A stretch of 61,564 nt of DNA, the filler included, from Dugesia japonica (Eukaryota): the NCBI GenBank assembly GCA_001938525.1. It is 6 parts of 6 records of this genome, joined end to end, with 100 filler letters (N's around TTAATTAATTAA, not from the genome) between each part and the next. Parts side by side here need not be neighbours in the genome. Positions count along the whole stretch, not along the records: positions 33,584 to 42,233 come from MQRL01551104.1; 5 more parts are not named here. The stretch is one strand, 5' to 3'. The notes below the pieces were generated by a model, which did no database searches, was not told the origin of the DNA, and saw only the letters and a list, made by a program, of their open reading frames with translations. The stretch's first letter is position 1, and every line of letters begins with the position of its first letter. Below are positions 12,181-61,564 of this stretch, piece after piece. Both the position numbers and the translations under genes were made by a program.

Positions 12181-12242
12181 AATTTTGAAAATGAAAAGTT
12201 AATAAAATATACCGCACCTAAAAAATTGCAAGACATATATAT

Positions 12243-15285: not shown

Positions 15286-15399
15286 TGAGAATCTAATTAT
15301 AAATTAGTCTATCCGATAGAGAATTTCATTTTGAGTTAGAAAAACATGGTTACAAATCGTCACATTGTATACATAAAAAGTTATAAAAGAAAAACAAAG

Positions 15400-18909: not shown

Positions 18910-19316
18910 TTATGTTCATTTATTTCAGCAATAATATCATCAAAAGATTTTTCTGGAAAGCTATATAAAAAATAAATACAAAGTACTCCACAAATTCTTG
19001 TTTCAAAAGGTTGAACTTGAATTTCATTAAATTTTTCAACATGCTTCTCAAGATCTTCATGAAATGGTTTTAAACCAAAAGAGTCAAAATAATGTTTATT
19101 CTTCATTGTTACCCAATGAGTTCAATTTTGATTTGTATTTTGATAATTAAAAATATAATTCATATCATTTTCAAAATTATCTGGCAACTCATTTTTCATG
19201 TAAATTTCCAATGGTATTTTTAAAAAGTTGTCAATGGAATAAAGATCAAAATTTGTAGTTGTAGTAATTCCAAATGTTTTTAGAAAATTTAAGATTTCTG
19301 GTTTATCATCGGACAT
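18843..19316 (-). pseudogene. Adenain-like (C5) maturation cysteine protease with one in-frame TGA at 19122-19124
   Basis: QN*THWV (G>stop in GTHW), YFDSFG and QVQ..ICGVLC supply the H/D/Q/C catalytic residues. Confidence 0.9.
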
Positions 19317-19920
19317 TTTCTTAAATGAACTAATAAAGACATTGTTTCATTATTAAAATCAATAGGTTTAAAATTTTCATCGACAACTTCAAATCTTAGA
19401 CCATCAATATAACTAGAAGATATTCTCGAGTAAATAAGTAGTGATGGTCTTTCAATAATTTTATATCCAAAGTTTACAGTGTTTGTTGGAAATGAAAATA
19501 ATAAATTAGTTGGTTTGTTATTTACATAATTTCCTTTAACTATATTACAAATAATGTTAATCATATTTATATCAGAAATGTTAATTTTTTCATTTGAATT
19601 ATATTTTCCAGATAGATACTTACCAGGTTTAAAACCTAAAAGTTTAGAAAAGAAAGATTTTTCATCAAATTTTAAAGTCTTATTTTCGGGAATAACAAGT
19701 AAAGATTTACCAGTTGAGGTATCTGCGGTTATCTCTATTTCTAAATATTTTATTTTCTCTGAAATTTCATCAACCTCATAAGCACTTGGGTGAATTTTTT
19801 CCTCCTTCCCATCAAATGTAAAATTAACATCTTCTTTTTCTATATTAAAAATAATATTATAAACAGAAAAGCAAATTAAACCAATTTCATATTCTTCTTT
19901 CAAGTCTAATGGGTGTCTTA
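19289..19920 (-). CDS. Polinton minor capsid protein (penton, single jelly roll)
   Basis: YEIGL..YN.IFNI, INIICNIVKGNYVN, GYKIIERP..LIY, VVDEN.KPIDFNNE..LHLR. Confidence 0.88.
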
Positions 19921-19979
19921 AATTATTTATTATTATTTATTTATTATTATTATTTATTATTATTTTATTTCTTAGTATT

Positions 19980-20700
19980 ATTTATTTAAAGTATTTTTTT
20001 TGATAAATTTTATATTTCTCATTTGAAATTAATTTCCTTGCTCTTAATTTTCCACAGATTGATTTAATAGCCTCATCAGTATTTTCATGACCGGATTTTT
20101 TAGCTGAAATTAAAACTATTAATTTTTCAAATAAATCTATTGCCGTGCCTTGTCCTTGAATAGCTGGTTGTTGTAGTGGGTGTAATATTGGTTGTGTTCC
20201 AATTTTTTTTTTCTTTTTTTAGGGGTTTTTTCTGGAGTTTTTGGTTCTACTTTTTTTTTAATATTTGATAATAATTGCTGTTGTAGGGGTGTGTAATCTT
20301 TAAACCAAATAAATAAATATTAACATCTTCTGTTTTTATATCATCAGTACATTTCCTAAAATTAAATTCATTGCTCCATCTGAATATGGAATAAGAGTAT
20401 CTGGAAGTATAAAAAATTTTGGTTCTGTATTTACCAAGACTAAATATATGTTTCTAATATTAATTTTTATTATTAAATAGGTTTTTACTGAAATGATTTC
20501 ATTAAAAAATTCTGGGATTGTTGTTGGAGTTAAATTATTAATATTAGGTTTCATTTCAATAGTTGGAATAAATGGATTTTTATTTTCAAATAATGTCTAC
20601 TTGTATTTTTGTTTGAGTATCCATTTCCAAAGTTGGAGGTTTTGGTATTAAAGGTGTTGGTTGTAATTGTTGTAATGCTGAAATTGTTGGTTGTTGTTAA
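19980..20700 (-). pseudogene. Polinton conserved uncharacterised protein, fragmented
   Basis: C-terminal GQG..DLFEKLIVLISAKKSGHENTDEAIKSICGKL pattern that I recognise from Maverick ORFs. Confidence 0.5.
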
Positions 20701-20947
20701 AGAGTTAGTGAAGATAGTAGGTTTTTACATTGGAGAACTTTACTAGAGAAATATTCATTATATTTTTCATCGGCTGCAATTATTTCTTTTAATTCTTTAA
20801 TTCTACTTGATAATATCACTTCACTCGCCACTCTCGCCATTTTAATAAGGTTTTTAATATAAACCATCGCCATAAGGTCGTAAATATATTCCTCCACCCT
20901 TTTTTTAATTCTTTCGATGATTTTAATTTTTGATTTTTTAAATATTC

Positions 20948-21298
20948 TTAAATAGCTTCACCCGGTTGTTTGTTTATATTTTCTATTTCAATTTCTCTTT
21001 CTTCTCGCTCTTCATTTATGTTATCAATTTCAATTTGTTTTTTATGTGATTCACGAGAGTGTGAAACGGTAGATGCAATTTTACTAGATATANNNNNNNN
21101 NNNNNNNNNNNNNNNNNNNNNNNNNNNNNNNNNNNNNNNNNNNNNNNNNNNNNNNNNNNNNNTTTTTTGATGTTTTTTAATTTCTTCTTTTGCTTTTTTA
21201 CCTATCCAATAATTTTTACCATCAATTTGAATAGACTTACTAAGATTTGAATTTAATAATTTTTTTAATTCTTCTTCTGTGATTGTCGCTTCGCCCAT
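20948..21298 (-). CDS. Polinton small core or membrane-active-type protein (centre masked)
   Basis: KKAKEEIKKHQK-[N]-SKIASTVSHSRESHKKQIE; position within the morphogenetic module. Confidence 0.4.
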   Translation of the reverse strand: MGEATITEEELKKLLNSNLSKSIQIDGKNYWIGKKAKEEIKKHQKXXXXXXXXXXXXXXXXXXXXXXXXISSKIASTVSHSRESHKKQIEIDNINEEREEREIEIENINKQPGEAI

Positions 21299-21299
21299 T

Positions 21300-22210
21300 T
21301 TATTTAGCAAATAAATCAGTTGTCATTTCATTTGTTAGTTGATTTAAATAAAAATATGTATAGGGTTCTTTCCAATGAAAATTTACTTCAAAATCATAAT
21401 TATCTTTTTGAAGAAATACATTTGAAAATAAATCACTATAAACACTATCACGATCTTTTTAATTTAATCGAAAAAATATAAAACAATTTGCATTACCTCT
21501 TATTGAATTTTTATCAAGGTGAAAATATGTTTGTGAAATATAAATTACATTACAATTTGAATGNCGACCTCGAGTGAAATAACTTTTTTGAATTTCTTGA
21601 TTTTTTTCCTTTACAACATCATCAAAAATTACAAGATTTTTTTTTATTTTTTTTAATCGATCACAGGGAATAATATCAGTTGGTTTATTACTTAGAATTA
21701 TTTATATTGCTTGTGGTCTTTTTGTTACAAATTTCTTTTCAATGAAAAATTTTATAACTTCTATTGGAGTAGTACATGAATCAGGAATAATCCCCTACTT
21801 ATCAAATATGAATATTATTTCTTGTTTTGTTAATCCATTTAAAAATNNNNNNNNNNNNNNNNNNNNNNNNNNNNNNNNNNNNNNNNNNNNNNNNNNTTCA
21901 TTTACAACATCATCAAAAATTACAAGATTTTTTTATTATTTTTAATCGATCACAAGGAATAATATCATTTGGTTTATAACTTAGAATTATTTCTATTGCC
22001 TGCGGTTTTTTTATTACAAAATATTTTTGAATGAAAAAATTTATAACCTCAAATAGTGGAGTACACGAATCTGGAACAATCGCTTGCTTCTCAAACATTA
22101 GTAGAATTTCTTGTTTTGTTAAACCATTTAAAAATCCATGATATCATAATTGTACTTCAAATTGATAAATTGTAGTCGAGTAAAAAACAAGAGTGTCGTA
22201 ATCGAGNNNN
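21300..22210 (-). pseudogene. A32/FtsK-like packaging ATPase with an internal tandem duplication; Walker A region falls in an N run
   Basis: Walker B LVIFDD (twice), YFTRGRHSNCNVIYISQTYFHLDKNSIRGNAN. Confidence 0.9.
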
Positions 22211-22355
22211 NNNNNNNNNNNNNNNNNNNNNNNNNNNNNNNNNNNNNNNNNNNNNNNNNNNNNNNNNNNNNNNNNNNNNNNNNNNNNNNNNNNNNNNNNN
22301 NNNNNNNNNNNNNNNNNNNNNNNNNNNNNNNNNNNNNNNNNNNNNNNNNNNNNNN

Positions 22356-22830
22356 TAAAGAAGTTTTTTGTAACTCATTCTCATTAAATCTTCCAAGAAT
22401 TTTTTTATCATCATCATCGGTGATTTGATAAGTTAGTGTACGATTAAATCTTTCAATGACAACTGCCTTTCCTTGATTATAAGTAGAATAGCGGTTAATA
22501 CTATTTTCTTTACAACAGGTGTTAAATGATGTGTTGTAAAATTCCTTTCCACGATCAACCCATAAATTATTTGGAGCTTGAAAATTTTTTCTAGAATTTT
22601 TTCAAATGCATTGGTAACCACCCCAGCGGTTTTTTTATCACAAAGTTCTACAAACGCAAATCTTGTATAAAGATCGATAACTGTTAGTATTACTTTTTAT
22701 TATGGAAAGTTAAATCTTCCAACCAAGTTTCATCGGGTTCACTGTTACTTTTAACAATTCTCTCGGTTTTTTATAATCACGATGAAGCTCATCTGCTATA
22801 CCTTGTCAAATTAATATTTTACCCTTTATT
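22356..22830 (-). pseudogene. Retroviral-like (rve) integrase of the Polinton, frameshifted and internally deleted
   Basis: IADELH, LTVIDLYTRFAF, LWVDRGKEFYN and KAVVIERFNRTL, joined directly to the C-terminal TYQITD..ILGRFNENELQKT. Confidence 0.9.
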
Positions 22831-23230
22831 GCTGTTTTTACAAGAGCTCTTTGAAATTTTTCTGCTATTGTAGGATTTTCAATATTATCCAAGTCGTATT
22901 TAATTTACATCCGCAATCTGTCGATCTCTAAGATCTTCTGANNNNNNNNNNNNNNNNNNNNNNNNNNNNNNNNNNNNNNNNNNNNNNNNNNNNNNNNNNN
23001 NNNNNNNNNNNNNNNNNNNNNNNNNNNNNNNNNNNNNNNNNNNNNNNNNNNNNNNNNNNNNNNNNNNNACCGAATAAATGTCTTTCACCTGGATATTTTT
23101 ACCAAGTAAATGGTTTTAAAATATTACTTACAAAACTTGATGATTGAAGATCCCCGCCGCCTTTACAAAGTTTTACATGCCTAGCTTTATTTTTTTTAAT
23201 AAAGTTCTATTACATTTTTCACATGTAAAT
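22810..23230 (-). pseudogene. Phospholipase A2-like (PLA2X-type) virion protein with an N-terminal zinc finger; core masked
   Basis: CEKC..RHVKLC then KYPGERHLF-[N]-EDLRDRQIAD..ENPTIAEKFQRALVKTAIKGK. Catalytic HD motif is not visible. Confidence 0.6.
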
Positions 23231-23248
23231 TTAGTTAATTTAATTATT

Positions 23249-24516
23249 TTATTTATTAAAAAATTTAACACCTCTCACATTTTCAACCATGGCAATTTTA
23301 TTATTTGCTAATTTCATTTCTTTATATTTTTCCTCAACAATGCACCAGTAAAGACTTCCGGTAAAATCTGGATCCTTTGTAATGTGAAGTGTAACATCAA
23401 CATTATTTATATTTAATCTATCAACTTTAGCTGTTACATCAAAACAGAAAATTGGATATAATTCGCCAAATTCTTGAAGGGATAATTGTGGTTCTGTGAA
23501 AAAGTATTGACAACATTATATATAATTAAAATAAGGATAAATCATTTCATTATTTGTCATATCAAATTTACATTCATTAATTGGATAGTAATTATTATTT
23601 AACTGAATTTGNNNNNNNNNNNNNNNNNNNNNNNNNNNNNNNNNNNNNNNNNNNNNNNNNNNNNNNNNNNNNNTTTTTGTTTTCTTTTGAATAAATAAAT
23701 TATTATTATTTGCAAAAGAAATCTCTTCATTTTTTATCACTATAAAAACATATCTTGGTTTATATGAAAGATTGCTGATTTTGTAAGATGAATAATTTCC
23801 AGAATCTAATGACATCTTTTCTGTTATTCTATTTAAAAATATAACTTTGATTGGTTTGTCTGTTGAAATTCTTTCTAAAAGCATTAATTCCATTTTAGGT
23901 GTTAATCTACATTCTGGAATGTGAAGTTCGAGAGTTAGCAATTTTATTTTTGGTGTGACTTCTCTTTTAAATAAAAATTTATCCTCTAATTGTCGATTGC
24001 AACAAAATTCAATCTTTGTGTTGTAAAGAACTCGGTTAAAATTTTGGATGAATCCAAATAAAATTCTCAATGGAAAATAACCTTCAAATTTTTTACTTTT
24101 GTATAATTTTTTTCTTCGCTCTTCATCTAAAACCCATCCTGATAATTCTCCATATATTTTTCTGTGAGTATAACTTGTTGTAATAAAATTTAACATTGTT
24201 GATATTGTGCAAGATCATTAATAGTTTCTACATNNNNNNNNNNNNNNNNNNNNNNNNNNNNNNNNNNNNNNNNNNNNNNNNNNNNNNNNNNNNNGGTTGC
24301 TGTTTTATCAGCTTCATTTTCTGTTTCTATTTTAAAGTATAACATTGCATTACAAATATCTAATGGATTCGTGGATTGTAAAGATTGAAAAAATATATCT
24401 CCACCTCCTATCATATTATTTATTGAACCAGATGTTGGTGAAATTTTTAAAATGTCATTTTTTAATAATTCATGAGTAAAAATAATATTATTATCAAGAT
24501 TTATTTTTCCTTCCAT
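23249..24516 (-). pseudogene. Polinton major capsid protein (double jelly roll), frameshifted
   Basis: ORFs 24190-24516 and 23516-24196 plus tail: FPLRILFGFIQNFNRVL, KPRYVFI, QIQLNNNYYP, YPIFCFDVT. Confidence 0.88.
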
Positions 24517-25223
24517 TTTCTATAGCAATTTTTTTAAACTGTTTAATAGTTTTATTGCGTCACTTGCTCCCACACATTTTCTTCTACAATTACCATCACC
24601 GTCACTATTCCTACTATTACAATTAGCATCACTATTACAATTCCTACTATTGCTATTACTATGGAATTTTTTTTCAAGCCTATCTTCTAATGAAATAAAT
24701 CTTCCATTTGAATCTCCTTCCATTAAAGTTTTTGTTGTTCTTTTGTTGAAAGGAATGTTAAATTTAATTATATGTTTTTATTGTTTTTTCATTAAATGAG
24801 TTAAGTTTACAAAAAATCTTTTATTGAATTTTTTTTAAAATTATAATTTTTCATCATTGTGTGTAAAACCGTCTCGGGCATTTTTTATAATATTTTTTTG
24901 GCTGATGCTCTAAGTATTCCTAGGCATGTTGTTGGGACTTTCATACGTTTAAATTTTTCAGTAATTTTTTCCTTCCCTTCTAAATTATTAAAAAAATTTA
25001 TAATCTCTTTTTGTGAAAGTCGCTTTCTACCATCTTTTAATGTAAATGAAAAAGTAATATCCTTATAATTAGTTATTATTGGTTTTCTTTTTTTAAAATT
25101 AAGCATTAAATACATTCCCTACATTCGTTTTCTATTTTTTGAAAAATAAAAACATTCATTTCTGATTTAAATGCCTTCTTGTCTTTTTCTATTATTTTTT
25201 TTTTCATTTAGTTTTTTATATAT

Positions 25224-26026
25224 TTAATTAAGGTTAATTAAGGTTTCTTCTATTATATCTTTTGTTAATTTATTTTTTCTATATTCTTTAATTTTATCAA
25301 GATTTATATCTTCATCAATTAAATTATTAATTGTCTCAAGTAAAACATCTAACCCTATTTCTTTTTCTACTGTCATTTTCTAAAGCTTAAAAACCACTTA
25401 CTTCAAAGGCAACTTTTGCTCCCACACGTTTTCTTTTCTTTCTTTAAAATTTTAAATCAAGGTCTTGATAAATTATCTTTTCAGATTTTAATTCTTCATT
25501 TAATTTTTTTAAGGCTACATTATGTTCATCTCGCTCTTTTTGTGCAATTTTTTTTACTTTTTTATTTTTCGGCTAAAAACAAGATTATATCACCCTTACA
25601 CTTGCCATCTGTTAATGAAGAAATAAAAGTTGTTGCTAGCGCATTAAAGTTTTTCTTTTCATTTTCAGCTATATCTTGTTGATTAATTTTCTTTTGCAGC
25701 TCACAAAGATTTGCTAAATATTCATCTGCTATATCTACTGTTAATTTATTTTTTCTATATTCTCCAATTTCATTTAAACTTAGTGCTTCTATACCTCTTA
25801 AATTTTTAAATATATTTAAAATTAATTCTACCCCAATCTCTTTTTTATTNNNNNNNNNNNNNNNNNNNNNNNNNNNNNNNNNNNNNNNNNNNNNNNNNNN
25901 NNNNTCTCTATGCTTTCTAATATTTCTTTGAAATTGAAAACCAAGCGCTTCATAAGGTATTTCTCCACCTCTTAAATTTTGATTTAAAATTATTACCAGC
26001 CTAACTTCTTTTTTTCCCGCTGCCAT
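25224..26026 (-). CDS. Two paralogous uncharacterised Polinton ORFs (25562-26026 and 25224-25376)
   Basis: KKEIGVELILNIFKNL..KNKLTVDIADEYLANL versus EKEIGLDVLLETINNL..KNKLTKDIIEETLINL. Confidence 0.45.
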
Positions 26027-26125
26027 TTTCTAAAGAAATAATTCAGCAATAAAATACTTTTCAGGTATGTTTAAATATTTTGTTTTTAGTTTGGTTTTTT
26101 CCAACACACTAAAAATATGAAAATA

Positions 26126-26568
26126 TAGAAAATATAAAATTTTTAATCGATAAAAATGGCTGCTAATAATATTATTGAAAGTGACTTTATAAATTCTTTT
26201 AAAATGAGTTAATACAAACTAAGAGTGAAAATAAAAATTTGAAGAAAAAAATATTGGAATAAATTTGTTATTATTATTAATATTTTAGTAATCGTAATCT
26301 TATATTAATCGAATACTAATCGAATAGTAATCGAATAGTAATCGTAATTGTATAGTAATCGTAATCGTAAAGGTATTGTAAAAATTTTTATTAATAAAAT
26401 GGTTAGTAATAAAGAAAGTGATTTTTACTCTTAAAAAGTTATAATTTTATGGAAAACCCTATTTCAAAGTTTTGTAAAGAAAATAATTTNAATGAAAAAA
26501 CAGTAACAAAATATTTAANAGANTTTAACATTCCTTATAATAGAAAAAATTATATTAAAATTTCAGAA
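26126..26568 (+). repeat. Internal inverted copy of the subterminal segment 31418-31852, including an 11-nt tandem array
   Basis: Reverse complement aligns along ~440 bp, from TAGAAAATATAAAAT..ATGGCTGCTAATAAT to ..TATTAAAATTTCAGAA. Confidence 0.93.
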
Positions 26569-26569
26569 T

Positions 26570-29500
26570 GTCTTTTATCTAACTTATTAATTTCTCGATC
26601 AGTATCGCTTTCGGCTTGAGCTTCCCGATATTCATAAGCATAACTTTTTGATTTAATAAAATCACATTTAATTATTTCATTATTAGGTTTTTCATCTTTC
26701 ATTCAACTTTTGTTAAATTATTTCTACCTATTATTTCTAAGAAAATTGAATATGTATAATGTATTTGTACAATGTATCTGAATAATGTATTTTATACTTA
26801 TTTGGAATTGCATTATCTAACTGATTATAAATAAAATCATATTTAACTTCTTTGGCATATTCTAAAATAGTAAAACCAATGTATGGGAATTTATTATATT
26901 TTAATTTAGATTGTCTTAAATGAATAGCTGATGTTTCTGCGATTCCAGTTTCTGTACATATAAATATTTTACTAGATCTAAAGTTTATTTTTGAAGCAAA
27001 CCTTTGATAATCTTTGTCTGTTCCAACTATTTCTACATTACATCTTTTCTAATATCTTTTAATGTTTTACCATAAAAAGCATTATTTAATAATTTGAAAA
27101 AAAAGAAATCTCCAAATACATTGTTTGTTCTTTTTGATTCNTTTCTCTGACCAATGTTAAATTGTTTATAATCTTTTAACCAAGGTATTGTAGAAAGGAT
27201 ATATTTCGAATGTATTTTCTTAATTTTCATTCCTAATTTTAAATATAAATATAATGTAGAACCCAAAACAATATAATTTTGTTTATTAAATTGATTTAAT
27301 GTTAGTTTAATATTTTTCTTACTTAATTTTTTTAAAATGATAATTGATATGGTCCTAACATTTCTTCTTTAATATTTATTCGATCTGGAGCTAATAGAAA
27401 GTATTTTGTCTTTTCATGAATTTCAGGTGGATATTCTAAATCAACTTCATAAATGTAATTAATTTCTGCGTTTGATTTTCTATATATTTAATCTTTTGAT
27501 TCAACTATTTCTCCTGTAGGTGAAGGTTTTGTCATGCAAGATACATATAAAGAATTCTCATCTAAATATTTTAAAAATGTATCTTCAAAATAATCTTGTG
27601 AAAATATTTGTTTTCCTTGTAATAATAAATTTAATAAATCATTCATTTCACCTTGATTTACTCTTTTATATTTTGGATTTTTAATATTATTATGACTAAA
27701 TACTTGTCCTTCTGCACAAACTCCTGAGAAACCACCTTTAACACCTCTTTCTATTTTTAGGTATAAATTATATGTATTTTCTTGAGCATATTTTAATTTT
27801 TGCTTTGCCAATTTCATTCCTGCCGCCCAAGTTAGACCTGGAGCTGAGTAACAATAACATGGATCTATGTTATAATTAATTAAACAAATATCTCTAAAAT
27901 TTTAAAAGAAATCAGCTAAAATAATTACATCTAATCTTATATAAAACATCATATAATCAAACAAATTTCCAAATTGATTAAAGTCTTGTAATAATTCATT
28001 GTATTCTTGTTCAGTTATTTTTTGTTGTTTTAGTTTATTGTTAAAATCTTCTTTTGTAGGAACCTTTTGACTTTTTAATAATTTAATTACTTGATTAATA
28101 TCATTTCCTTTTACATATTCATATGGAAATGATATTTTCTTTGGTTTGAGATTAAATTATCTTAAATGATTATATTTTCTTGATTGATTTAATCAATTGT
28201 GTCGATCGATTTAAATGGACACATTCTTCCCGAATCTAAAAATCTGATGTATCGCAATTTAAAGGAAATGTAAACTTCATCTGTATGTGGAACTATTCTT
28301 TTTACTACTGTTGGATATTTTGTTAATAATTCTTTAAAAAATAGATGATTATCATAACCAAATGCATTGTGAAAATAAAAAGGTATAAATAATTCTTTTA
28401 TAGATTTATCTTGTAAATTACAATTTGAATGAGCATAACCTCTGAATTCCCCATTAAAATGGTCATGATCTATTACTAGATTTTCAGTTATATTTTTATT
28501 ACAATATCTTATTTTGGATATTCTTCAAAAGTATTGTAAGATTGGCCACCTCTAAAATATTTAATTAATTTATTTTCTTTTATATCAATTAATTTATTAT
28601 TAATATCTTCTAAAAATTGAAAGAACTTGTGGTGTATATTCTCTCCATAAAATTCTTTATATTCATTTTGAATTAAATGTTAATATTTACTTTTGATATA
28701 AATTCCTAGAGATAATGGTTTTTGTTTATTGGTAATTGTACTAGTCCAACTTTCGAAATCTGCATAAATTACAAAAGGTAATTCATTTGAAAAATAATTA
28801 TTTTTAAATGAAAAATATTTATCATTTTTAAAATAACTCTTTAGATGAATCATGATTACTACATTCTTTTTGATGATTAATTAATAAATCTTTACTGTGA
28901 TAACAACTCATAGAGCATAAACACAAATGATTATTATTTTTATTAGTATTTGCAAAAACACTAACATTTATACATAAAATATAATGTCCTTTGTAAAATA
29001 ATAAATTACATTTATTTATTTCTGGTTTAGTATTACTATCATAATGAGAAATATAAACTGGATAGATTTTAGCTTTTTCAGTTACTTCAAATAAGTTTAC
29101 TTTAAAATCATTTAATTTTTCAAATAGTTTAACATCATCAATGCTTTTTGGGAAAATTCATTTGGTGTGGTTCGTTGGATTTTATTTTTAATTCGTTTAA
29201 ATAAGGAGTGTAATTTGAAACTCTATTTGGATCTCGTAATACATGTTTATGAGCTGAAATCGAATATAAAAAACAAAAATCATCTTTATTTTTAATATTA
29301 ATTACACCTGGTTTTATAAATGGTAATTTTTTATACGAAGAACCAACTTTTGATTGATATTTTGAAAGTTCAATTCCATCAACTTTCATTTTGATCTTCA
29401 TCTTCCATAAATCTNTGTAGTTGATTTAATAACTCTTCCACTTTTGATAGTAATTCTTTCATTACTTGAATATGAATTAAATACTCTTTCTTCATCTTCT

Positions 29501-30134
29501 TTAGTATAATTACAATTTACACTCAATCGTAACATCAACTTTTTTGAATAATCAAAATAAATATCAACAATTTTACTAATTTTCTTTTAAACCATGTTAT
29601 TAATTTAAAATTTTATTTTTGTACATGTCTAGTTAATTCAATTTTACTTTCTTTAAAATATTCAATTTTATAATACTTTANNNNNNNNNNNNNNNNNNNN
29701 NNNNNNNNNNNNNNNNNNNNNNNNNNNNNNNNNNNNNNNNNNNNNNNNNNNNNNNNNNNNNNNNNNNNNNNNNNNNNNNNNNNNNNNNNNNNNNNNNNTT
29801 GCTTTTTATGTAAATCGCTGTTGAAATGAAATTTTGCATGATTTTGTCTAGTGAATGTTAAGTTACAGATATTACAAAATAATGGAACTGTACCAGCCCC
29901 AACAGAACAATTTGTGGAGTTTTTATGTAATCTCAAACCTTTTTCACTTACTTATTTTTTGAAACATAAACTACATTCATAAAACATGTTTCTTACTCTT
30001 GTACATGTTTGTGATTGAATATGCGACGACAACCCCACGTTATTTTTAAAAGTTTTGCTACAAACAGACCATTTAAAAATTAACGCCGAAAAACTCATAG
30101 GTCTTTGAAAATTCATTTTATTTGAAGTATTCAT
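26570..30134 (-). pseudogene. polB: Protein-primed family B DNA polymerase with N-terminal C2H2 fingers and an EndoVII/HNH insert; C-terminus truncated
   Basis: INIKNKDDFCFLYSI, VIYADFES (ExoI), DHDHFNGEFRGYAHSNCNL, FHNAFGYD (ExoII), FPYEY, YLDENSLY (motif A), FKLLNNAFYGKT (motif B), KDE..IKSKSYAY. Confidence 0.95.
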
Positions 30135-30169
30135 TTTATAGAGAAATAATTTGATCGATTAAAAAAATA

Positions 30170-30553
30170 ACTTCCTTAAAGGTTCTATATTTCTTTTCTT
30201 TGAGGAATTTCTAGTATTTCAAATGTGTTTGTTTTAATATTAAAAACATAATCACCATCATTATTTTTAACATATTGTTGAGAATGTTCATGAAAAGAAT
30301 ATTTAACTCTAGGATATCTTTTTACTGGTGGTTTTAAATTTAATTCGCTTCAAGTTTTATTTAATGTTCGAATACTTATTCCCATTTCTTTAGCAATGCT
30401 AGAATCTTTTAACTTTAGATTTTCAAAACTTAAATCTTGATATTTTACTGCTAAACAAATCTTTTGAAATTTAACAAATAGTTTTGGATCAAAGTTATGT
30501 GCATAATTAATATAATCAACTACATTATCACTCAAATCATTTTCACTTTCCAT
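30170..30553 (-). pseudogene. Polinton helix-turn-helix DNA-binding protein
   Basis: KDSSIAKEMGISIRTLNKT* followed by in-frame SELNLKPP. Confidence 0.5.
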
Positions 30554-31417
30554 TTTTTATATTTATTATTTAGAAAAAATAGTGAACTTAACTTAGAATG
30601 AGACCCTATTTTGAGCTAGAAGTTTTTACTGTATAATTTGGCAAATAACTTTTGGCTGCATATACTCTTTTAATTTCATCTTCATATTCTTCAGGTACTT
30701 TTACTCGAGTTAATCTTTCACATAAATTATCAGTATTTTTTTTAATTTCATTTGCTATATTTATAAAATCCAAATTTGAAATAATTAAGTCATCATCATC
30801 TTCATATTTTTCTTTTCACTTTCTAATCACTTTCTAATTGTTTTATAATTTCTACATTTCTAAGTGCTTGTTTAGATAAATTATTTATTTTTACATTCTG
30901 ATTCACAAAATTTTAAAAACATTACTGTTAATAATGTTTTAAACATTTCACTATCTTTAAAGTTTTCTACTTGAGAATACATGTCTTTTAAAACAGCTAA
31001 ATATTTCTTTGCTATTTTACTTGTAATTTCACATTTAGCAAAATTATTAATTTCTTCAAAAGTAAAATTTTCAACCTTGGAAAAGTTATCTATACTATTA
31101 TACAAAGTATNNNNNNNNNNNNNNNNNNNNNNNNNNNNNNNNNNNNNNNNNNNNNNNNNNNNNNNNNNNNNNNNNNNNNNNNNNNNNNNNNNNNNNNNNN
31201 NNNNNNNNNNNNNNNNNNNNNNNNNNNNNNNNNNNNNNNNNNNNNNNNNNNNNNNNNNNNNNNNNNNNNNNNNNNNNNNNNNNNNNNNNNNNNNNNNNNN
31301 NNNNNNNNNNNNATTGATTTGATTTTGATTTTGTTGAGGTCTAATAGGGTGGGAATCATTTGAATTAGTTTTATCAAATCGTTTTATTAAAGATTTATAT
31401 TTACCGGTAACATCTCT

Positions 31418-35352: not shown

Positions 35353-35658
35353 TTAATTAACAGTTAATTCTCCTCCATTTAATTTTGCAAAATTGAATTT
35401 TGAAGACTCATTATCAATGGTGCAACCAATTGATCTGGCTGTACATAAAATTTCTTTAACAGTATCTTGTAAAGTTTTACCACATGATCGTGATCTCATA
35501 ATCTTGGCAATTTCAATGATGGAATCAAAATTGATATTACCATCATGTTTAATGTTCTTGACCTTTTAACTATCAGAGTTGATTTTTCAATTCTTTCACC
35601 AATAGAGAAGCTGCATTTGGCACAACAGAAATTTCAGCTTTTATAGTTAACTTTTTAT
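35353..35658 (-). pseudogene. RPL12: 60S ribosomal protein L12 (uL11) pseudogene, 3' part
   Basis: AEISVVPNAASLLVKELK, then a frameshift and stop, then KVKNIKHDGNINFDSIIEIAKIMRSRSCGKTLQDTVKEILCTARSIGCTID. Confidence 0.85.
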
Positions 35659-37395: not shown

Positions 37396-38861
37396 AGAGA
37401 ATAATTGTATAAATACCCGTTAAACCCAGAGGTGGACATCAAATAGTGCAAATAATAAAATATAACAGTACTTGTGTTTGAGGTAAATACTGTTACACTT
37501 CAAGTTATATAATCAATAAAATATAATATTATTGTAAAAATTTTGATCCGAAACAAATCAATATCATTACTTCAACATTTTCTTATTCGATTTGAACATA
37601 AAAAATTGTTATTTTGTTTATAAAATTGTTAGGGTGAAACACATGCTCAGAAAGGCAACAAAGCCTAAACTCAAAGTCCACAAAAAAGAACAATAAAACC
37701 CGTAAAATTACTATCAAGAGAATTCAAAAGAAGAAAGTAATTATGATTCAGGAGGGTTATAATGAAAATAATCAGGAATAAAGAATACAAGCAGAGGGAA
37801 TACCACGAACCAGTGACCTAAAACAACATACATTCATATCAGAATTAAAAAGAATTAATGAAAAATTATTTTAAAATTCAAGAAAATTAGTATAAGGAAA
37901 TTGCTAATTAAGAAAAGAAAATATTAATTAATTTGGAAATAAAAATCGGAATCGAACCGAAAATCAGTTTTTCATGATTAACTCCGTTCAGGAAAGTCGG
38001 AGAGAATCCGGTTAAGAAAATTCAAGAAGAAAATAACAAGGGGCATTGAGATTTACCAGGAAGAAAAACCTACCATCACCCAGAAAGCTGCTGCAGTGTC
38101 CACAAGATTGAACCAATAGGAGGCCTAAAAATAAAAATAAAACAAAGAAGGAACCATCACATGGCCATCTAAAAATACTTACCAATCAGAGCTCTAAAAC
38201 TCTGTAAAAATTCTGGAATCATGGANCTAGCACCAATAAGACACTGGTATTTGAAAATAAAAATACCCTCCAATAAGAATGATGCCGAGTAGCATCAGAA
38301 AATCATATAAAAGGACCCCTAACTTTAGCAGAAAAAACAACAATTTTTGCGAAAAATTATTAGTATTAAATTGCACCGTATTAATTTCTGTGGATAATTA
38401 ACCTTGGTGAAAAAACGTTCAGAATATTACCATTTTAATCAAGCGTAAGGCAGAACCATTTGCAGTTGTTAGTTCTGAATTCATTCTAATTTTATAGGAG
38501 AGAGCTACTCAGTCGGTAGAAAAAAGAAAAAAAATCAAAGTCGGAATTGAAATAATAGTTGGAACTTCAAATTACGTTTGTTTAGCCCGTTGCAGAATTA
38601 CCACTTGATATTAAAAGTAAAAATTTGTTGTTATTATTATATGTCAATTAGATAATAAAAATGTCAAATAAATATCGTTTTTAAATTTAATAAATCCTCG
38701 ATAATAAATAAATAATCATGAAAAAAATTAATAAAAATAAACTCAAATTTTTATTTAAGATAGTTATTTATTCTACAATCAAACTCAACAAAATTTTTCT
38801 ACTAACCACTGAACAAATAGATAACCGCAATAAGAAGTATTTTCTTTTTATTCACTTCTGA

Positions 38862-39484
38862 CAGCACAATGAGTTCAGAATCCTTAAGACACCCCTATTA
38901 AGCGACGCAGAGCAAATTCAGAAAAATCTGAACATCAAGAATCGAGAGATAATAACTTTACCCAGCCCGACGAACTCACATGCTACGGTAGATTTATATA
39001 TTCCCTTATAGTAATATATTAATGGAATGTTAAAATCTATAGATTCAGTCTTTTCAGCCATGGATAATCAATCCCCAAAATGTGTGCGAGATGTGCATAG
39101 TCCTGGACGAATTGGAGACCGAACTGCTGATGAATCCACAACTAAATTGGACACAAAATATGAAAATACTGATTCATCTAATACACATCATGAGTTCACA
39201 GACATATCATCACTTGTCAAGTTTAAGTGCTCAACAAATTCCCGACATCGCAATTGGCATGTCAGTTTATCGTACCGACAATATACTCAGAATGTGTAAA
39301 GATATAATGAACTGTTCAAACAAAGTGGGCTCCAATATGCTCTCGGTCAAGAAGAAATGTCTCCTTCAGGTTTTATATATTTCAAATTAAATATTAATTA
39401 ATAAATAATTAGGCTACAGGCATCTACAGCTGTATTTTGAATTTAAGGAGAGCATTCACTTCTCCGTGGCCAGAAATCGCCTAA
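38862..39484 (+). CDS. Overprinted alternative-frame ORF across Rep introns 1 and 2 (174 stop-free codons; first in-frame ATG at 39091)
   Basis: Exons 38862-38987, 39043-39369 and 39413-39484 join in phase 0 with no stop until TAA at 39482-39484. Confidence 0.55.
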
Positions 39485-40356
39485 TGGTACCATTCGCTAC
39501 AGCTATCCACGAAAACGATAAGCAGCGGATACGGGATTATGTGACAAAAGCTGAAACTCGTGTGCATAATGGTGTTGTAATTAATTTCGGAACACCCAGT
39601 AAGTGCAAGATTAACAAACAGGATATTTGGAATAATTTATTAAACTGTTCTAATATGAATGAGGCAATCGATCTATTAAAAAAAGAGATCCATTTACATA
39701 TATCACTAAAAAAATGTATCATTGAAAATTTAAAAAGCGAGTATGGTGAAATTATTGATGCTAAATATTTAAAATTCAAACATCCGTTTTTTGACGTGTA
39801 CGATAATATAACACACGTATTTATCGGCAAATCAGGCATTGGAAAGACTAGTTTCGCACTAGCTCATTTCACACGTCCATGCTTAATAACAAACAGGCAA
39901 AGCTTTAGTCTTATCACAGAGAATAATAATGGATTGGTGATCGATGACATAGATTTCCGCAAGTGGCCTGTCACCGAGCTCATACATTTATATGACTGCG
40001 AGTATGACAGTATGATTGACATCAAGTATTCAACAGCTCGTATCCCAAAAAGAATGCCGAGAATTATTTGTGTAAATGACATAAGTATGATATTCCCTTA
40101 TGATGTTATTCAATCTACTCGCGAAGCATTAGAACGACGATTACAAATACACTATTTAAATGATAAATTATTCTTTATGACTGATTTAACACCAGTAATT
40201 AAATTATATAAATCAATAATAATATTTATTTTATTTCAGCGGAAAGTATCGAAATTAACAAATCCGTATCGTCAACAAATGCAGGATGTCAAATTAAGAA
40301 TGTTAACGGACAGCAATTCGACTCCTACAATTCAAACCGTTGATTTGGACGAATAA
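38869..40356 (+). pseudogene. rep: Spliced CRESS-DNA-virus-like Rep (HUH endonuclease plus SF3 helicase); predicted introns 38988-39042, 39370-39412 and 40195-40239; one in-frame TAA at 39297
   Basis: Motif I-like RNWHVSL, motif II GQEEMSPSG|YRHLQLYFEF (restored by splicing), motif III DYVTKAETR, Walker A GKSGIGKT, Walker B LVIDD, motif B' IDIKYSTARIP, motif C IICVN, Arg finger ALERR. Confidence 0.88.
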
Positions 40357-40542
40357 AATGTCCAGGCTGCCATTCGGAACTCTCTCTTAGTATTTATTCG
40401 AATATAAAAAAATTTGAATAACTTTAATTTAGTTGATAGTGATTGGATGTCATGTGTGTATTGATTGTTCCGTTATTCATATAAAATAAATGTTTTAATC
40501 AGTTTATTTATTCTTTTATGGATTTTAATAAATTTATAGTTT

Positions 40543-41151
40543 ATGAAAAACTTTATGATTTTATATGAAAATTTTATTAGTAGTAATACTTTTTATTTTA
40601 ATAAGCAATTTACTGTCATTCTCAATAATTTTATTAAAAAACATAATCTCAATATTACGGAAGAAGCTAATCCCATCAATTATCGTATTTGTGCAATTGG
40701 CCTTGTTCTATTGCTACAATCCGGCAAGACAACTTGTATATTACTTGATGGGGTATCTAATGCCGGTAAGTCCCTTTTCCTGAAGATTTTCTCAGCAGGT
40801 CTAGATATCGGATCATTCAGTCTCATTCATATGCAAAGCGAATTTTGCTTCGATAATCTCATCAATAAAACAATAGGGATCGGTGAAGAAGTTACTCTAG
40901 ATTTCAGAGTCGGTGTCAAAAATGGACCAAAAGCTATGTTAAAACCAATGCCATTCATCGTATGTGGAAATCTTCCTATATGGACATATTTATCCAGTGC
41001 AAAAGAGGCTATACTCAACAGATGCATATATATTCCTTGCACCAAAGAAATATCCATTGACATTAATGTTAATCTAAACAATTATATTGATGAGTTCAAA
41101 AAAGTAAAAATAGATGTACTTAATCGTGTTTTTAAAAATATAATTATTTAA
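40543..41151 (+). CDS. Parvovirus NS1-like SF3 helicase domain (no HUH domain seen; short deletion after Walker B)
   Basis: KTTCILLDGVSNAGKS (Walker A), FCFDNLINKTIGIGEE (Walker B, EE type), RVGVKN (B'), PFIVCGN (C), AILNR (Arg finger). Confidence 0.82.
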   Translation: MKNFMILYENFISSNTFYFNKQFTVILNNFIKKHNLNITEEANPINYRICAIGLVLLLQSGKTTCILLDGVSNAGKSLFLKIFSAGLDIGSFSLIHMQSEFCFDNLINKTIGIGEEVTLDFRVGVKNGPKAMLKPMPFIVCGNLPIWTYLSSAKEAILNRCIYIPCTKEISIDINVNLNNYIDEFKKVKIDVLNRVFKNIII

Positions 41152-44100
41152 TGTATGACTCATTTCTAAACTTCCTAAAGTAAATGTAATTATATAGAAA
41201 ATTTCTATAATATAACTTTCAGATAGAATCAACCAATCAGATTACGAGTGCTTAAGTAACAAACAAACCTATAATTAAGCATTCACTTATAAAAGTTATA
41301 CGATGACTCATAAATTATTGAATGCCCGGGGTTTGTTGAGGCTTAAGGAATAATTAAATGATCTATATAGATGCTTCAAGCAGCCATGGCTGCTGATTCA
41401 ACGACCCATGGGTCGTATACGCATCTATACGTCCTACGATAAGATAAAATTCCACCAGGATAATTTCACTGAGATCTACCATCAGGTCATAATCTGCTAA
41501 AATCCCGTTATATGACAACGGCATGGAATTTTGGGGAGAGCAACGAGTTTCACTTGACAATAACAGCACGTAAATTGATCCTCCGTTGTAACATAAAATG
41601 TTGAATATTATAATTTCCTCTCTTACAACGTTGCTAATCATGATTCATAGCAAGTGTGTAACGAATTCAGTAATGTCCACTAATGAAACCCAGTAATGTC
41701 TACTAATGTCCACACATTGGACTCTAATAACAATTCATTTACGCTGCAGTTGAAACCGGATAAACAAATTAAACATACCCACTTAGGTAATACACACCGA
41801 AGATGACAAAGTCCAATTTAACATACCGTAATCTAATTCGTTACCATGGGGGGGANNNNNNNNNNNNNNNNNNNNNNNNNNNNNNNNNNNNNNNNNNNNN
41901 NNNNNNNNNNNNNNNNNNNNNNNNNNNNNNNNNNNNNNNNNNNNNNNNNNNNNNNNNNNNNNNNNNNNNTTATTATTATTACTATTATTATCATTAATAT
42001 TATTATCATTATTATTACTATCAACTTCATAGTTATTATAGGTGTTTTTAATTATTAATGCGATCTTACTTGCCATTGCCGTTATCAAGATCATTGCCAT
42101 TGAAATTATCCATATTATGGGTATTATTCCTATTATTCGTATTGCTAGTATTATAATTTTATCAGTACCCGTTTATGCATTTATATTCTAGCGTCATTCT
42201 CATCATCATCTTTATTATGGTATACAGCCCTATNNNNNNNNNNNNNNNNNNNNNNNNNNNNNNNNNNNNNNNNNNNNTTAATTAATTAANNNNNNNNNNN
42301 NNNNNNNNNNNNNNNNNNNNNNNNNNNNNNNNNAAAAAAAACTGCTACAAAATTTAAAAGATAAACAAATTAATTTTCAAAATTTCTATTTTTTTTATTG
42401 AACCAAAATTTTTGACAGAAAACAGTAATTAAATGGGAAAAATAAAATAAATCTCTTGTATAATATTCTAAAATATTTTTTATCCAAACAGCCATTTGAT
42501 GCAAACAATTTCCACAACCGTTTCAAATGTCCAATTTTTGATTTTTTTGGTTTTAACATTTGTTCATTCTACCTAAAAAAAAATTTTTTTAAATTAATTA
42601 AAATAAATAATTTAAATTGTTTTTTGACTAATCAAGTTTTGTTAAAAATAAATTCAAATAAAATCGCGAATATTATTTTAACAGAATTTCCCAAGAGTTT
42701 TCAAAAACAACTCTTGGGAATTTGCATTTGAGAAATAATTATTGTTTAATATTACATTTATTTTCATAAATAGTAATAAATGATAAAATAATGAAATTAT
42801 GAATTAATATTTGTCTGGATTAAAATAAGTTTTTTAATGTCGATAAGAAATTTAAATTTTAAATTAACAAAATTATTACTTTAAAGATATTATTACACAA
42901 AGATCTATCTATCTATATATTTATCTATCTATCTATATGTCTATAAATGATTTATAGTCCAGTTCAAAATAACCTTGTTAAGACCAGTTTTATAAAAAAA
43001 TTTTACGTTAAATAACTACTAAATAACTAAAATATTTAGAATGCAAAAAGAAATTAAAGATTATATAAAACACAAATAAAGGAGAATAAACAGCAATCAG
43101 CAAGTTATTCATAAATAATGTATTCGCTTTTTTCTCAAAATGACTGGGTACCTTTTACCAATTTTATTTGAAATTGAACAGAAATAACTAATTTATTAAA
43201 ATCATGAAATTTATTAGAATAATTCCCAGTCATTCGGTATTTATTTGGTTTGATTAAAGAATTTTCTTATAGATTTCCGATTAACTATGATTAGATATTG
43301 GAAATTATTTAGCATTTCAGTTCTAACACCATGTAGGTAGTATAAATTAATTAATTTCTACCGATATTTTGATATTGATATATTTTTATGTATTTAAATA
43401 GAATGATAATTGGTTTCCTTGATAAATTGCTGATTCACTGTTATGTACAAACCAGTACAAATTTTAGGTCAAATTTATAATTAATTTTTCATAATTAATT
43501 TACTATTTCAAATTTATTAATTCAATTTTTTGTTAATTAATTTAAGAATAAAATGTTTATCAAAGTTATGAACATAATTTGTAAAATTCAAACTTTCTTA
43601 ATTTCATTTATAAAGTAACTGGTAATATATTCTTGTTCAAATCTTTTTAAATATTTTATCTTACTAAAACACTTGTTAATCAAACAAACAAGTTAATATA
43701 TTATTCACAGCTTTAAAATTTAGAGTGGGACATATTTTACGAGAAATAGAATTTCGTATTTGTAATAATTTTAAATAAACTCCGGTTCAATTCGATATAT
43801 GAAAAATTAGGCTTTTTCCACTTTTCTATATGAACCATTTTCATTGATTTCAACCTTCGTTGTTAATCACATGTTTTACATTTATTGTCATACACTGTTG
43901 CACTGAGTATTTCATTTCATCTACATTTTTTATAATGTTAATAACAGTCAATGGAGTTAAGTTCTACTTAAATAGAGACGTCTACAATTTTTTATTGATC
44001 GATTTTCAGTGATTTTTTATTTTGTAAATTGTAGTTTGTTTAATCACACCATTTTCATTATTGAAAAATAACATTTATTTGAAATATATTTTTGCCCACT

Positions 44101-51400: not shown

Positions 51401-52531
51401 TTTGTAAACTGATTAACCACAATTGGTGAGTCATCATTACTCCTTTATAAATTTCCAAGTTAACAACTTCTAATAGTTCTTTCTATTATTTTCGCTGAGA
51501 TTATTTTATTTAGAAGGATAATTGTTTCTAACGTTGTCACTGTTATTATTTTTCTAGTAAATTCTATAGTAAATTAATTTTTATAGTAAATTTTTAATTT
51601 GCGGTGAAAGTTATGACTATAGGGTATTCTAAGTCATCACTTAGCTATGAATATTTAGAAAGTTATGTTATTATGTGGTCCACAGTTAAACTTTTTAAAT
51701 TAAGGTAACCAGGGAAGTCTCTGTTTTACATCATTTTTGTATAGCGACATTTGGCATGTTAGATTTTACAAATTAACAATTAATCACTCTTTCATTTTCT
51801 AGATAATACCAAGCACCCCTTATATCATATTTAAAAAGGGATTCCCGAGAATTGGCACCAATTGTTAAAACACCTGTTAAATTCTAGTGAGGTAGAAAAT
51901 CCAGACAATACCCATCTGGCATATTTCGCGGAGATGTTTCTCTTAGAAACGTTGCCAGACACCAATCGGTCTACATAAACTTTGTTTTGTTATTAATAAA
52001 AAATTTATATTAATTCATTTGATATTATTTACTTTATTCTTATCTCTTGTAACATGACAAAGCCACATCGAGTTTGAATGCTTTTCCCATTAAGAAATGG
52101 CACGGTAGTTTTTTAACGTAGGAATCCCGTTCCGCTGGGTTGTATGCATTCTGGTGGACCGTCAAAATATTCCACCACAGGACCAAATCCAGCCAAGGGG
52201 TGATAACAGCCTAGAAAGGTACTTTCACTGTAACCGACCACTTCAAACAATCACGCATATAATTTCACCAGCATCCCCCAACTCCGTTCTTAACGGAGGT
52301 ATTTGAAAACCAACCACTGTAAGAGCGGTTTATCAAATGACACTGCAACTCTTTATGTTTTATGTACCTGTGTTTGTGTGTCAAATATTATCGTTCATAA
52401 TTTTTTCATGCAATATTTTCATTATTTTATTGCTTAATGGCTAATTCTACTTTTAAGTGAACCGACCAAGAGTTGAATAATCCATGACTAATAGAGGACG
52501 CCAGGCTGATAGTGAAGACTAAGAGATGACT

Positions 52532-53910: not shown

Positions 53911-54329
<419 letters not shown>

Positions 54330-58559: not shown

Positions 58560-61500
58560 ATTATATAGTTTCTTCTTTAGTCTTAATTGTTACCACCTTC
58601 AAACGCCGATTTCCTTTACACTGCCCCACAACCTAGTCATGTCATAATGTTCTCTGATATATTTGGAAACTTTTTCTGTTCTTGCACGTGCTAGCAACTG
58701 ATGCATTTCTCTGATCATATCGGATTTTCTATCTGTTGGTATCCAAATCTTTCCGTTTTGTGTTAATATCTGACCATCTTTCCATTGTAATCTCTCTTCT
58801 TTACCAAATTTAATCTGTTCTCGTATAATTCGTATCTCTTCATTATCTCTTTGCCATTTTGATGTTTACGCTATTTTATTAAATCGTTTCGTTTTTAATT
58901 TGCCCCCTATAGGATCTTGGTGTCACATTGTGCATTGTAAACATGTGCCACATGCCTGCCTTGAGAGAAAATTCACATTGGCATGTTTATCGCCTTTCCG
59001 ATACTGTATATCAATGTCTAATACACTTAGGTAATTGATACAATTTTGAAACTGCGCCGTTATAGGTTTCTTCGTAGTTAACATAAATGTAATCGCTTTA
59101 TGGTCTGTTCATAGAATTAATCTTCGCCCATATAAGTAGTGACTGAAATGGTTGCAGAAATATAATATCGCCAACACATCCTTTCTTATTATACAATACC
59201 ATTATTCGTGGTTATTCATTGCGTGTAATCCACATGCTATTACCTTTTCTTGTCCATTGTTATCAATTTGTGATAATAACACACTAATAGTACTGTAGAT
59301 TGCATCTGCATCCTATATGAATTGTCTTCTGACATCCGGGAACACTAAAATTGGTGACTTCATTAACGCTTCTTTCATATTTCTGAATGATTGTTCGCTG
59401 CTCTCTGTCCATATTAACTTCTTATTATTTATACTGAACAGTTTTTCCAGTTCTCTAGTTTTCTTTGCGTAATCCTTTATAAATCTTCTATAATAGCAAC
59501 ATATCCCTAAGAAACTTCTCAATCTTTTCATGCATTTTGGCCTTTCGTATGTCTGTATTGCAACAAAGTTTGCTGGATCGGTCTGAACTCCTTTATCACT
59601 TATGATGTGTCGCAAAAATTTGATCTCTTTTCTTAGTAATTGATATTTTGACGGACTCAAACGTAGTCCTGCTTGATGCATTTTACTAAATACCTCATCC
59701 AGTGTTTTGTAATGCTCTTCCAAGTTTTCTGAATATATAAGAATATCGTCTAAATACACTGTTGATCCCTTTGTTGCACCTAAAACCATTGTCATGAGTT
59801 CCTGGAATGTCTCATGCGCTGCAGCTATGCCAAACGACATTCTATTGAAGCATTATTGACCTGACTTTGTTGAAATGGCTGTTTTATCTTTGGACTCTTC
59901 TTCTAGCTCAATTCTAGAAAGTATGACTTAAATATAATGAACTGAAGAATTTTGACCCGCCTAATCTATCCATAATCTCTTCTACATTTGGCATTGGAAA
60001 TGCTTGTCTTTCCGTTAAAGCGTTCAACTATCAAAAATCAAGACAGAAACGAATGTCTTTCTTTTCTTTTTACCAGATACATATCAATGGGGTGTTTTAT
60101 GTTGAATTGCACCTTCGTATAATTCCATTTTCAAATAGATTACNNNNNNNNNNNNNNNNNTTATCCTTTAGGTTCATAGTTGTTCTCCATTGCTTAACAT
60201 TTATAGGTACTCCTTTTGTTACTATTTTATGCTTCACCAGTTTTGTGCATCCTATATCCCATTTATCTGCTTTCAAGATATTTGAATGTTTTCTTATTAC
60301 TCAAGGCTTTTTGACATCTTTCATCATCGGTAATATTCCTACCAAAATGCGGCTGGATATTTCAAATCAGATCTTGATTATCTTTTTCTGCTCCATCTAT
60401 CCAATGTACTTCTAATCCAAAACTGGTCTGCAACTCAATGCCACCAATTATGCTAGGGATTACCTTTTTCACAACGAAAAAATTAATCCATCTAGTCATA
60501 TTGTCGATTTTCACTTCCATCTCAAATCTCCCTTTGGTACTTAATGAACTTTCGTTAGCGCACCGTAGTAGGTTCTTGGTTGTTAATAACGGGATATCAT
60601 TGAATTTGTTAAACACATCCATACCCATCACATAAATTCTTGCTCCGGTATCTAGTAGGCATTCAAACTCCATGTTTTGAATCTTTAACTTAATACTTGG
60701 TTTACTTGGTCTACCCTGCATTATAACATATCTAATCACACCTTTTCCCCATTCTTCCGCTGTTGCGATTGTTGGTTCCACTGATATTTCTTCTTTGATT
60801 ACTGATATCTTTTTCTTTAAAAAATTATAAACGCGTACCTTGACATCATCCTCTATATTATTGACATGACTACCTTTACTATAACTATCGATATTTTGGG
60901 GATCACCCATTAGATTTGGAGTTCTAGAGCTCCTATCGTCTCCCCTGTTGGTGCAGCCTCTCCGTTTGGGTTTCTCCTTGATTCATATACGTTTGCGTCA
61001 TATCTGTTGTCACCATATCTAACGTCTTCATTTCAGTCGTCCTCATATTCCTTGCTACTTGTTTCATTATTTTCCACTGCATTGATGTTAATATGCCTAC
61101 CCGAAAATGGGGGCATTTTTACCTCATATTTCTTATATTCAGAAGGATACTCGTTCCATCTCTTGTACTTCATCTTTGTTGATCAATCTTTGGTTTTATG
61201 ACCGTTCTTCTTACAATTTCCGCACTTTATCTTGTTGCACTGTCTTCTTATATGCCCTACATTTCCACATGCATAGCATGTAGGAGGCTTTCTGTCTCGG
61301 CACTCCCGACTTATGTGTCCCAAATTTGTGACAATTTCAACATTCTACTTTCTCTGTTCTTAACTCTCTTCTGATATTTAGCCCTTTGTAGATTGGTTCC
61401 TGCATCTTTGGTACCGTTCTTTTTGGTTTCGCGTATAATGCCACCTTGTAGCTACGCATCATGGTTATTCCTTCTGTCTTTTTCGCGATTCATGAAAAGT

Positions 61501-61564
61501 CTCTGATTATCTCTTTTATTTCTTCCGGTTCGGAAACTTTTTTCATCAGAATCTCTTTTTTGTG
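58560..61564 (-). mobile_element. Ty3/Gypsy retrotransposon, degraded gag-pol (zinc knuckles, PR, RT, RNase H, partial integrase)
   Basis: CYACGNVGHIRRQC knuckles (~61200-61340), LLDTGA, RMSFG..YLDD, FLGICCYYRRFI, HYLYG..TDHKA. Confidence 0.92.

Follow-up and report, generated by a model that had tools for sequence, protein, structure and literature searches.

The window, that is, the whole 61,564-nt stretch of Dugesia japonica DNA under analysis (assembly GCA_001938525.1), carries a Rep gene in its part from record MQRL01551104.1. This gene belongs to an insertion that interrupts a multi-copy gene and that further holds a short CxxC frame, the remnant of a second SF3 helicase and a pair of palindromes (Table 1). 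An RBX1 gene of the host, located in another part of the window, was used as a control for intron size.

Table 1. Features of the Rep-bearing insertion, its target gene and the host control gene (positions along the window)
Feature	Position	Strand	Remarks
Whole insertion	38884-41430	+	2547 nt in a multi-copy target gene, 6 letters of which it replaces; no target-site duplication seen
Rep exon 1	38888-38987	+	5'-cut, without ATG; N-terminal extension without homologues
Intron 1 (likely)	38988-39042	+	55 nt, phase 1, GT..AG, 80% AT
Rep exon 2	39043-39369	+	Low-complexity leader, then motif I region and the stretch leading to motif II
Intron 2 (best supported)	39370-39412	+	43 nt, phase 1, GT..AG, 93% AT
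Rep exon 3	39413-40194	+	Motif II HLQ, motif III YVTK, SF3 helicase
Intron 3 (possible)	40195-40239	+	45 nt, phase 0, GT..AG, 91% AT, stop-free in frame
Rep exon 4	40240-40356	+	C-terminal tail, TVDLDE and stop at end
Possible overprinted frame (+1)	38886-39484	+	Stop-free across exons 1, 2 and 23 codons of exon 3; uses introns 1 and 2
Short CxxC frame	40344-40421	+	Overlaps Rep stop, without ATG; weak zinc-ribbon matches (E 0.016 and 0.064)
Second SF3 helicase remnant (E1/NS1/D5-like)	40540-41151	+	Pfam PPV_E1_C E 0.005-0.007, below cut-off; Atlas DUF5906 clusters 0.95
Two perfect 16-bp palindromes	41379-41394, 41401-41416		14 nt inside right end; fold z -3.2
Interrupted target gene remainder	41431-41835	+	First codons 38870-38883; multi-copy, decayed
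Host RBX1 gene	53920-54329	-	Introns 54163-54122 (42 nt) and 54050-54010 (41 nt); intron-size control

The three GT..AG segments of the Rep gene are present exactly where the initial annotation had placed them, and its count of the joined frame is reproduced: taken from position 38888, the four exons add up to 1326 nt, or 442 codons, with one in-frame TAA (39297-39299, in exon 2). The AT content of the exons is 58-65%, compared with 80-93% in the three segments. The first ATG in the Rep frame is found at 39060, exon 1 having none in this frame, and retention of intron 1 brings stops into both open frames. The +1 frame has 0 stops in exon 2 and 23 in exon 3, and exon 2 stays stop-free at +1 in 2% of codon shuffles; judging from sequence, this frame over exons 1-2 may be an overprinted gene. 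Two candidate features were dropped. A ciliate-type code for the internal TAA does not fit, since TAA ends Rep in the window and in a paralogue and the host RBX1 gene reads by the standard code. The same holds for a fourth intron from 40390, as paralogue reads keep the reading frame through this region with silent changes.

Exon 3 sits in a 315-codon open frame and is stop-free for 260 codons across profile columns 48-298. Used as a query, it finds one environmental CRESS Rep at E 6.5e-16 and the CRESS Rep clusters in Atlas (0.96), while a Pfam scan at E 0.1 leaves it undetected. The suggestion that ORF-based virus screens would miss this gene thus does not hold beyond Pfam: with exon 3 detectable by itself, such screens would pick up the gene, albeit as a truncated Rep. 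A profile built from 120 Reps, relatives of the environmental match, reaches from the motif I region of the window Rep through the whole of exon 3, with exon 2 aligned to columns 4-43. HUH motifs I, II (HUQ/HUH) and III (YxxK) of CRESS-DNA Reps all appear at the expected columns (8-14 RNWHVSL for motif I, which is degenerate, 49-51 HLQ and 87-90 YVTK, respectively). The fused SF3 helicase of this class is recognised by both alignment and fold, with Walker A (GKSGIGKT), Walker B, motif C and Arg finger in exon 3. The predicted fold is SF3 helicase-like and matches the PCV2 Rep ATPase 8xms as well as E1; profile A1 matches 7lar (E 3.5e-23). A comparison of exon 3 with phages gave no match, a single-protein scan of viral contigs gave no relative, and profile scans of environmental contigs returned 67 and 42 loci, all distant, with no close relative among them.

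According to the spacing of conserved columns, intron 2, which lies three codons ahead of the first His of motif II, is the best supported of the three. Its removal leaves 9 residues between columns 38 and 49 (the junction being scored as X), and 105 of 114 homologues have 9 or 10, which bears out the proposal that splicing here builds the motif II context; the remaining 6 of the 120 Reps lack an anchor. With intron 2 kept the spacing is 24, a value seen in 0 of 114 homologues. The profile score is 187.9 bits for the spliced form vs 182.1 or less unspliced, a gain of only ~6 bits, and the profile covers intron 2 only, introns 1 and 3 being outside the homologous core. If intron 2 were kept, translation would end before the catalytic motifs, so its removal would be required for any active Rep. 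Taken together, intron 2 is very probably real.

Among 110 environmental Rep loci, 0 are split at motif II, 48 being whole, 41 partial and 21 split elsewhere or at contig ends; these loci are distant relatives, 24-43% identical. Four of the environmental loci (L010, L021, L032 and L044) are split over two frames at profile columns ~85-110, 183 and 197, where introns or frameshifts are possible.

As for composition, the locus contains 111 GT..AG segments between 35 and 70 nt long, of which intron 2 has the highest AT content and intron 3 the second highest, with intron 1 tied for seventh to eighth place; on the opposite strand, the best of 105 such segments reaches 83% AT. A blind 40-nt AT scan of the locus likewise returns introns 3 and 2 as the top two islands (97.5%), with intron 1 as one of three islands at 85%. 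In shuffles of the island letters, GT..AG edges in the right frame arise in 12%, 3.5% and 3.1% of cases for introns 1, 2 and 3, respectively, the product being ~1e-4 for islands that were picked post hoc. The donor of intron 3 (GTAATT) is identical to the donor of both RBX1 introns. Host introns had been put at 41-43 nt, with which the two measured here, both from RBX1, agree; short introns of Schmidtea mediterranea, at 45-85 bp, are slightly above this range according to the available text of PMC13594981.

Contigs were drawn from four runs (X1, X2, X3 and X11), of which X1 and X3 are RNA by guess; the contigs considered are the best-supported ones, beyond which there are a further 28 joints, 652 loose ends and 1678 pieces. 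One X1 contig of depth 2 joins 39366→39412 with 2 other letters between, so that a net 43 nt, the length of intron 2, is absent. Its flanking letters differ from the window, which means that it comes from a relative, and this single contig of a run that is RNA by guess could instead derive from an intron-less DNA relative. No joint of this type occurs among the best-supported contigs of the deeper run X11. X1 record 3 matches the window with 0 differences from 39042, the acceptor of intron 1, after 20 loose letters, a break that splicing of intron 1 would give, as far as the contig sequence tells. In X1, unspliced contigs span intron 2 (record 4) and intron 3 (record 6), as they do in X3 (records 27 and 29, respectively). 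Near copies in X11 (records 11, 13 and 14) hold all three segments ungapped, with 10 differences each in 309-442 nt; of these, record 11 aligns from 38888 and is preceded by 65 other letters. Among the differences listed between copies, 4 of 5 are silent in exon 3 and 1 of 5 in exon 2 when read in the Rep frame.

The initial annotation had proposed a search for junction reads, and its outcome is mixed: the X1 contig of a relative lacks intron 2, and raw reads of four RNA runs (~7,060 million letters) give 41 partial matches, none with at least 95% identity, and no joint. This Rep copy is not seen expressed in these four runs, and none of the runs holding the stretch is recorded as RNA. Two poly(A) runs from the same study contain reads of a divergent relative at 40335-40373 (4 and 9, first mate minus), which is also read at ~40480-40512, so some member of the family is likely transcribed on the plus strand. 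Paralogue reads preserve the end of exon 4 (TVDLDE and stop), followed by a CPxCH frame and SELSLSIYSN with silent changes; since a divergent relative keeps both frames, both are likely coding in the family. A loose end before 40571 in X2 (2 contigs, agreement 0.77) reads like the Arg-finger stretch of Rep (EALDRRL) and is noted as a lead only.

The insertion is delimited by joints across the empty site (38880→41432, 38881→41432 and 38883→41431), found in contigs of 3 of the 4 runs with the same net size of 2541; three sequence variants of the empty site occur in three runs. Both ends of the insertion fall in one empty site, which argues against an assembly chimera, and among the contigs considered none bridges either junction. 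ATTACA at the empty site resembles the CRESS nick site but may simply belong to the coding sequence of the target gene; it is a lead only. Pfam assigned no family to the target gene in 12 frames of the two flanks. The nonanucleotide motif (NANTATTAC) that marks the stem-loop origin of CRESS-DNA viruses has 44 matches in the AT-rich window, 2 of them within the insertion (40583 and 40651) and none at the palindromes. The latter are the only GC-rich perfect 16-bp palindromes in the window, and viral contigs contain no exact match to the two together. Terminal inverted repeats pairing both ends were not seen among the 25 longest of 160 pairs, the left end being cut, and the frames scanned in this truncated copy contain no capsid-like family.

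A gap of 180 nt separates Rep from the second helicase, which is on the same strand, and in other copies internal deletions (40014→40570 and 39824→40386) bring the helicase region next to Rep. For the second helicase, a single-protein scan of viral contigs found no relative, a search with the longer protein gave 0 of 1626 candidates and a PDB sequence search gave 0; its single-sequence model has pLDDT 34, which is unusable, and the fold search is empty.

In the Foldseek comparison of the exon-3 Rep with viral structures, the PEVE type 2 Rep (Q910M2) is second of 500 (E 2.3e-19), with 30% identity over 268 columns of a 272-aa protein; the first rank belongs to an unrelated CRESS Rep. PEVE and PIVE, the latter integrated in Schmidtea mediterranea, were described by Liu et al. 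2011 (PMC3198968), in the accessible text of which the PIVE_3p Rep groups with Reps of the PEVE large segment, and the NS1-like helicase PIVE_1p with the small segment. The window element shares with PEVE/PIVE a CRESS-type Rep near Q910M2 in fold and sequence, integrated copies and, possibly, a second helicase of SF3 type that is E1/NS1-like. The same pairing of Rep with an NS1-like helicase makes the window element a likely relative. Unlike PEVE, in which the two genes are on the large and small segments (PMC3198968, accessible text), it carries both on one strand; terminal inverted repeats, a PEVE/PIVE feature, are not found among the 25 longest repeat pairs of this element, the left end of which is cut. 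The insertion thus likely belongs, in decayed form, to the PEVE/PIVE lineage already known, with a second helicase remnant that neither sequence nor fold ties to a PEVE protein, and no new kind of element is revealed. The annotated PEVE Rep has approximately the length of exon 3 and aligns nearly throughout, so the same intron is perhaps unrecognised there, a reading that comes from lengths rather than sequence; the word 'intron' has 0 occurrences in the main text of Liu et al. (PMC3198968). A cheap prediction follows, namely that the recorded PEVE Rep of 272 aa has been annotated without its complete N-terminus.

Introns are also found in other Reps. In geminiviruses, the unspliced form is itself a protein (RepA). 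The initial annotation had referred to mastrevirus and genomovirus Reps with one intron, which agrees with the available text of Zhao et al. (bioRxiv 10.1101/687855). According to this source, removal of a spliceosomal intron likewise yields the full Rep in Genomoviridae and in mastre-, becurto-, capula- and grabloviruses, the geminivirus/genomovirus intron having one origin and the porcine circovirus Rep intron a second. These geminivirus/genomovirus Reps have one intron at one shared site, whereas the window Rep has up to three, one of them inside the endonuclease, and the single intron between endonuclease and helicase is absent from it, exon 3 having no stop between motif II and the Arg finger. 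Because the sites differ, the window introns likely represent an independent gain. In the available part of PMC7468197, 36 crucivirus reps are predicted to be spliced, with helicase motifs mostly in the predicted second exon; for these and for the porcine circovirus Rep/Rep', the passages covered describe no multiple mini-introns and no motif II intron. Intron-marked Reps are known from arthropod CRESS sequences as well (PMC6186406, in part), and the Rep-type transposon Replitron-1 carries two introns (PMC10288648, in part); along with spliced cruciviruses, these cases indicate that Rep introns recur. The literature covered (excluding most subscription journals, the original PEVE description and Repbase) offers no case of several mini-introns or of a motif II intron, and the accessible parts of PMC9615429, PMC9241645, PMC4040987 and PMC10433990 contain nothing on such Rep introns. 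Replitrons and Helitrons are likewise chromosomal Rep-type elements with terminal hairpins and no target-site duplication, as stated in the available text of PMC10288648. Replitrons, however, are without a helicase, in contrast to the SF3 helicase fused to the window Rep, and Helitrons combine a two-tyrosine Rep with an SF1B helicase, in contrast to its single YxxK and SF3 fold.

Considered as a whole, the evidence makes it fairly probable that the locus holds a chromosomal copy, decayed and cut at the 5' end, of a likely PEVE/PIVE-type element, and that the Rep gene of this element likely had two or three spliceosomal introns of host size by the time the copy was inserted. Of the initial proposal of an intronised viral-type Rep, the CRESS-type Rep and the host-sized intron before motif II stand, and what it overlooked is the context, namely a decayed, two-helicase, palindrome-ended insertion. 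The age of the introns is the point at which an alternative arises, in which they arose only once the element had become chromosomal and transposon-like, the free virus-like ancestor having had an uninterrupted Rep. The two introns of Replitron-1 (PMC10288648, in part), the multi-copy family with internally deleted members and the absence of any split at motif II in the 110 environmental loci would suit such a course. The last comparison, however, involves sequences of low identity, and the Rep annotated in the extrachromosomal PEVE has, by its length, the size expected if split at the same place; this alternative is improbable. Since one decaying copy is unlikely to have gained three introns, and the segments recur in near copies, the introns likely predate this insertion, whether they arose in a free or a chromosomal phase. 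A chance origin of the segments, i.e., AT-rich insertions acquired during decay with accidental GT..AG edges, is in keeping with a copy broken in several places, the modest edge test of intron 1 and the lack of spliced raw reads. It must nevertheless accommodate the low joint probability of the edges, segments that are host-like in size and donors, a relative's contig lacking exactly 43 nt at intron 2 and near copies that hold all three segments, and is very improbable.

A narrower reading accepts only intron 2 (and perhaps intron 1), takes segment 3 as AT-rich coding sequence and places segment 1 in the leader of a Rep whose start codon is the ATG at 39060. As the initial annotation had pointed out in naming intron 3 its weakest call, segment 3 is in frame and stop-free, and the profile does not distinguish its spliced and read-through forms (188.1 and 188.4 bits, respectively). 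Also, it is covered only by unspliced contigs among those considered, and the ends of the window Rep extend beyond the aligned core, while homologues have a median of only 4 residues on either side. At the same time, the 40-mer with the highest AT content of the locus lies in segment 3, which has GC contents of 13/7/7% by codon position vs 30-42% in the adjoining exons; the segment begins with a host donor hexamer and ends in TTTCAG, edges of a kind obtained in 3% of shuffles. The narrower reading is rather unlikely. Intron 1 is probably real, and the composition of intron 3 makes it reasonably likely to be real as well.

This copy is likely dead. In active relatives, the Rep gene would be transcribed in the host nucleus, the host spliceosome would excise the short AT-rich introns and so join motif I to motifs II and III, and the resulting Rep would nick and copy the element from its hairpin ends, with the second helicase presumably assisting. 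Should several host-sized introns at new sites hold, they would represent an independent origin of Rep introns beyond the two in the genealogy of Zhao et al. (10.1101/687855, available text). The element would then be a small DNA replicon fitted to the minimal intron size of one host, which could serve host prediction. A bolder extension, rather doubtful at present, regards PEVE/PIVE as one lineage of nuclear replicons that have two helicases and stand midway between virus and transposon. Their Rep gene would be as rich in introns as a host gene, one of these introns lying within the HUH nuclease and being obligatory, and it would be accompanied by an overprinted frame that is spliced and by a frame for a zinc ribbon. 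What has been published as the PEVE Rep would amount to the third exon only, and insertion without target-site duplication would be the work of the element's own Rep.

Other parts of the window contain further remnants. Upstream of the insertion, positions 37620-38600 hold a decayed membrane-protein-like frame on the minus strand with no Pfam family, for which depth in X11 is up to ~10,000 vs ~13-38 over Rep. A decayed coding stretch at 51700-52480 (minus strand), also with no Pfam family, includes an AT-rich GT..AG segment of 53-62 nt, and a decayed fragment of 60S ribosomal protein L12 lies at 35353-35646 (minus strand). Tc1/mariner-like, gypsy-like and GIY-YIG (Penelope-like) remnants were noted by eye at 6100-7000 (-), 58600-61564 (-) and 130-470 (+), respectively, as were frames at ~17600-31400 (-) resembling a decayed Maverick/Polinton (DNA polymerase B, capsids and integrase). 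Finally, a viral fusion glycoprotein fragment at 11051-11533 (+), within ~10000-15300, matches Pfam Monjiviricetes_fusion at E 2e-20 and, given the protease- and integrase-like frames seen by eye beside it, likely belongs to an env-bearing LTR retroelement.
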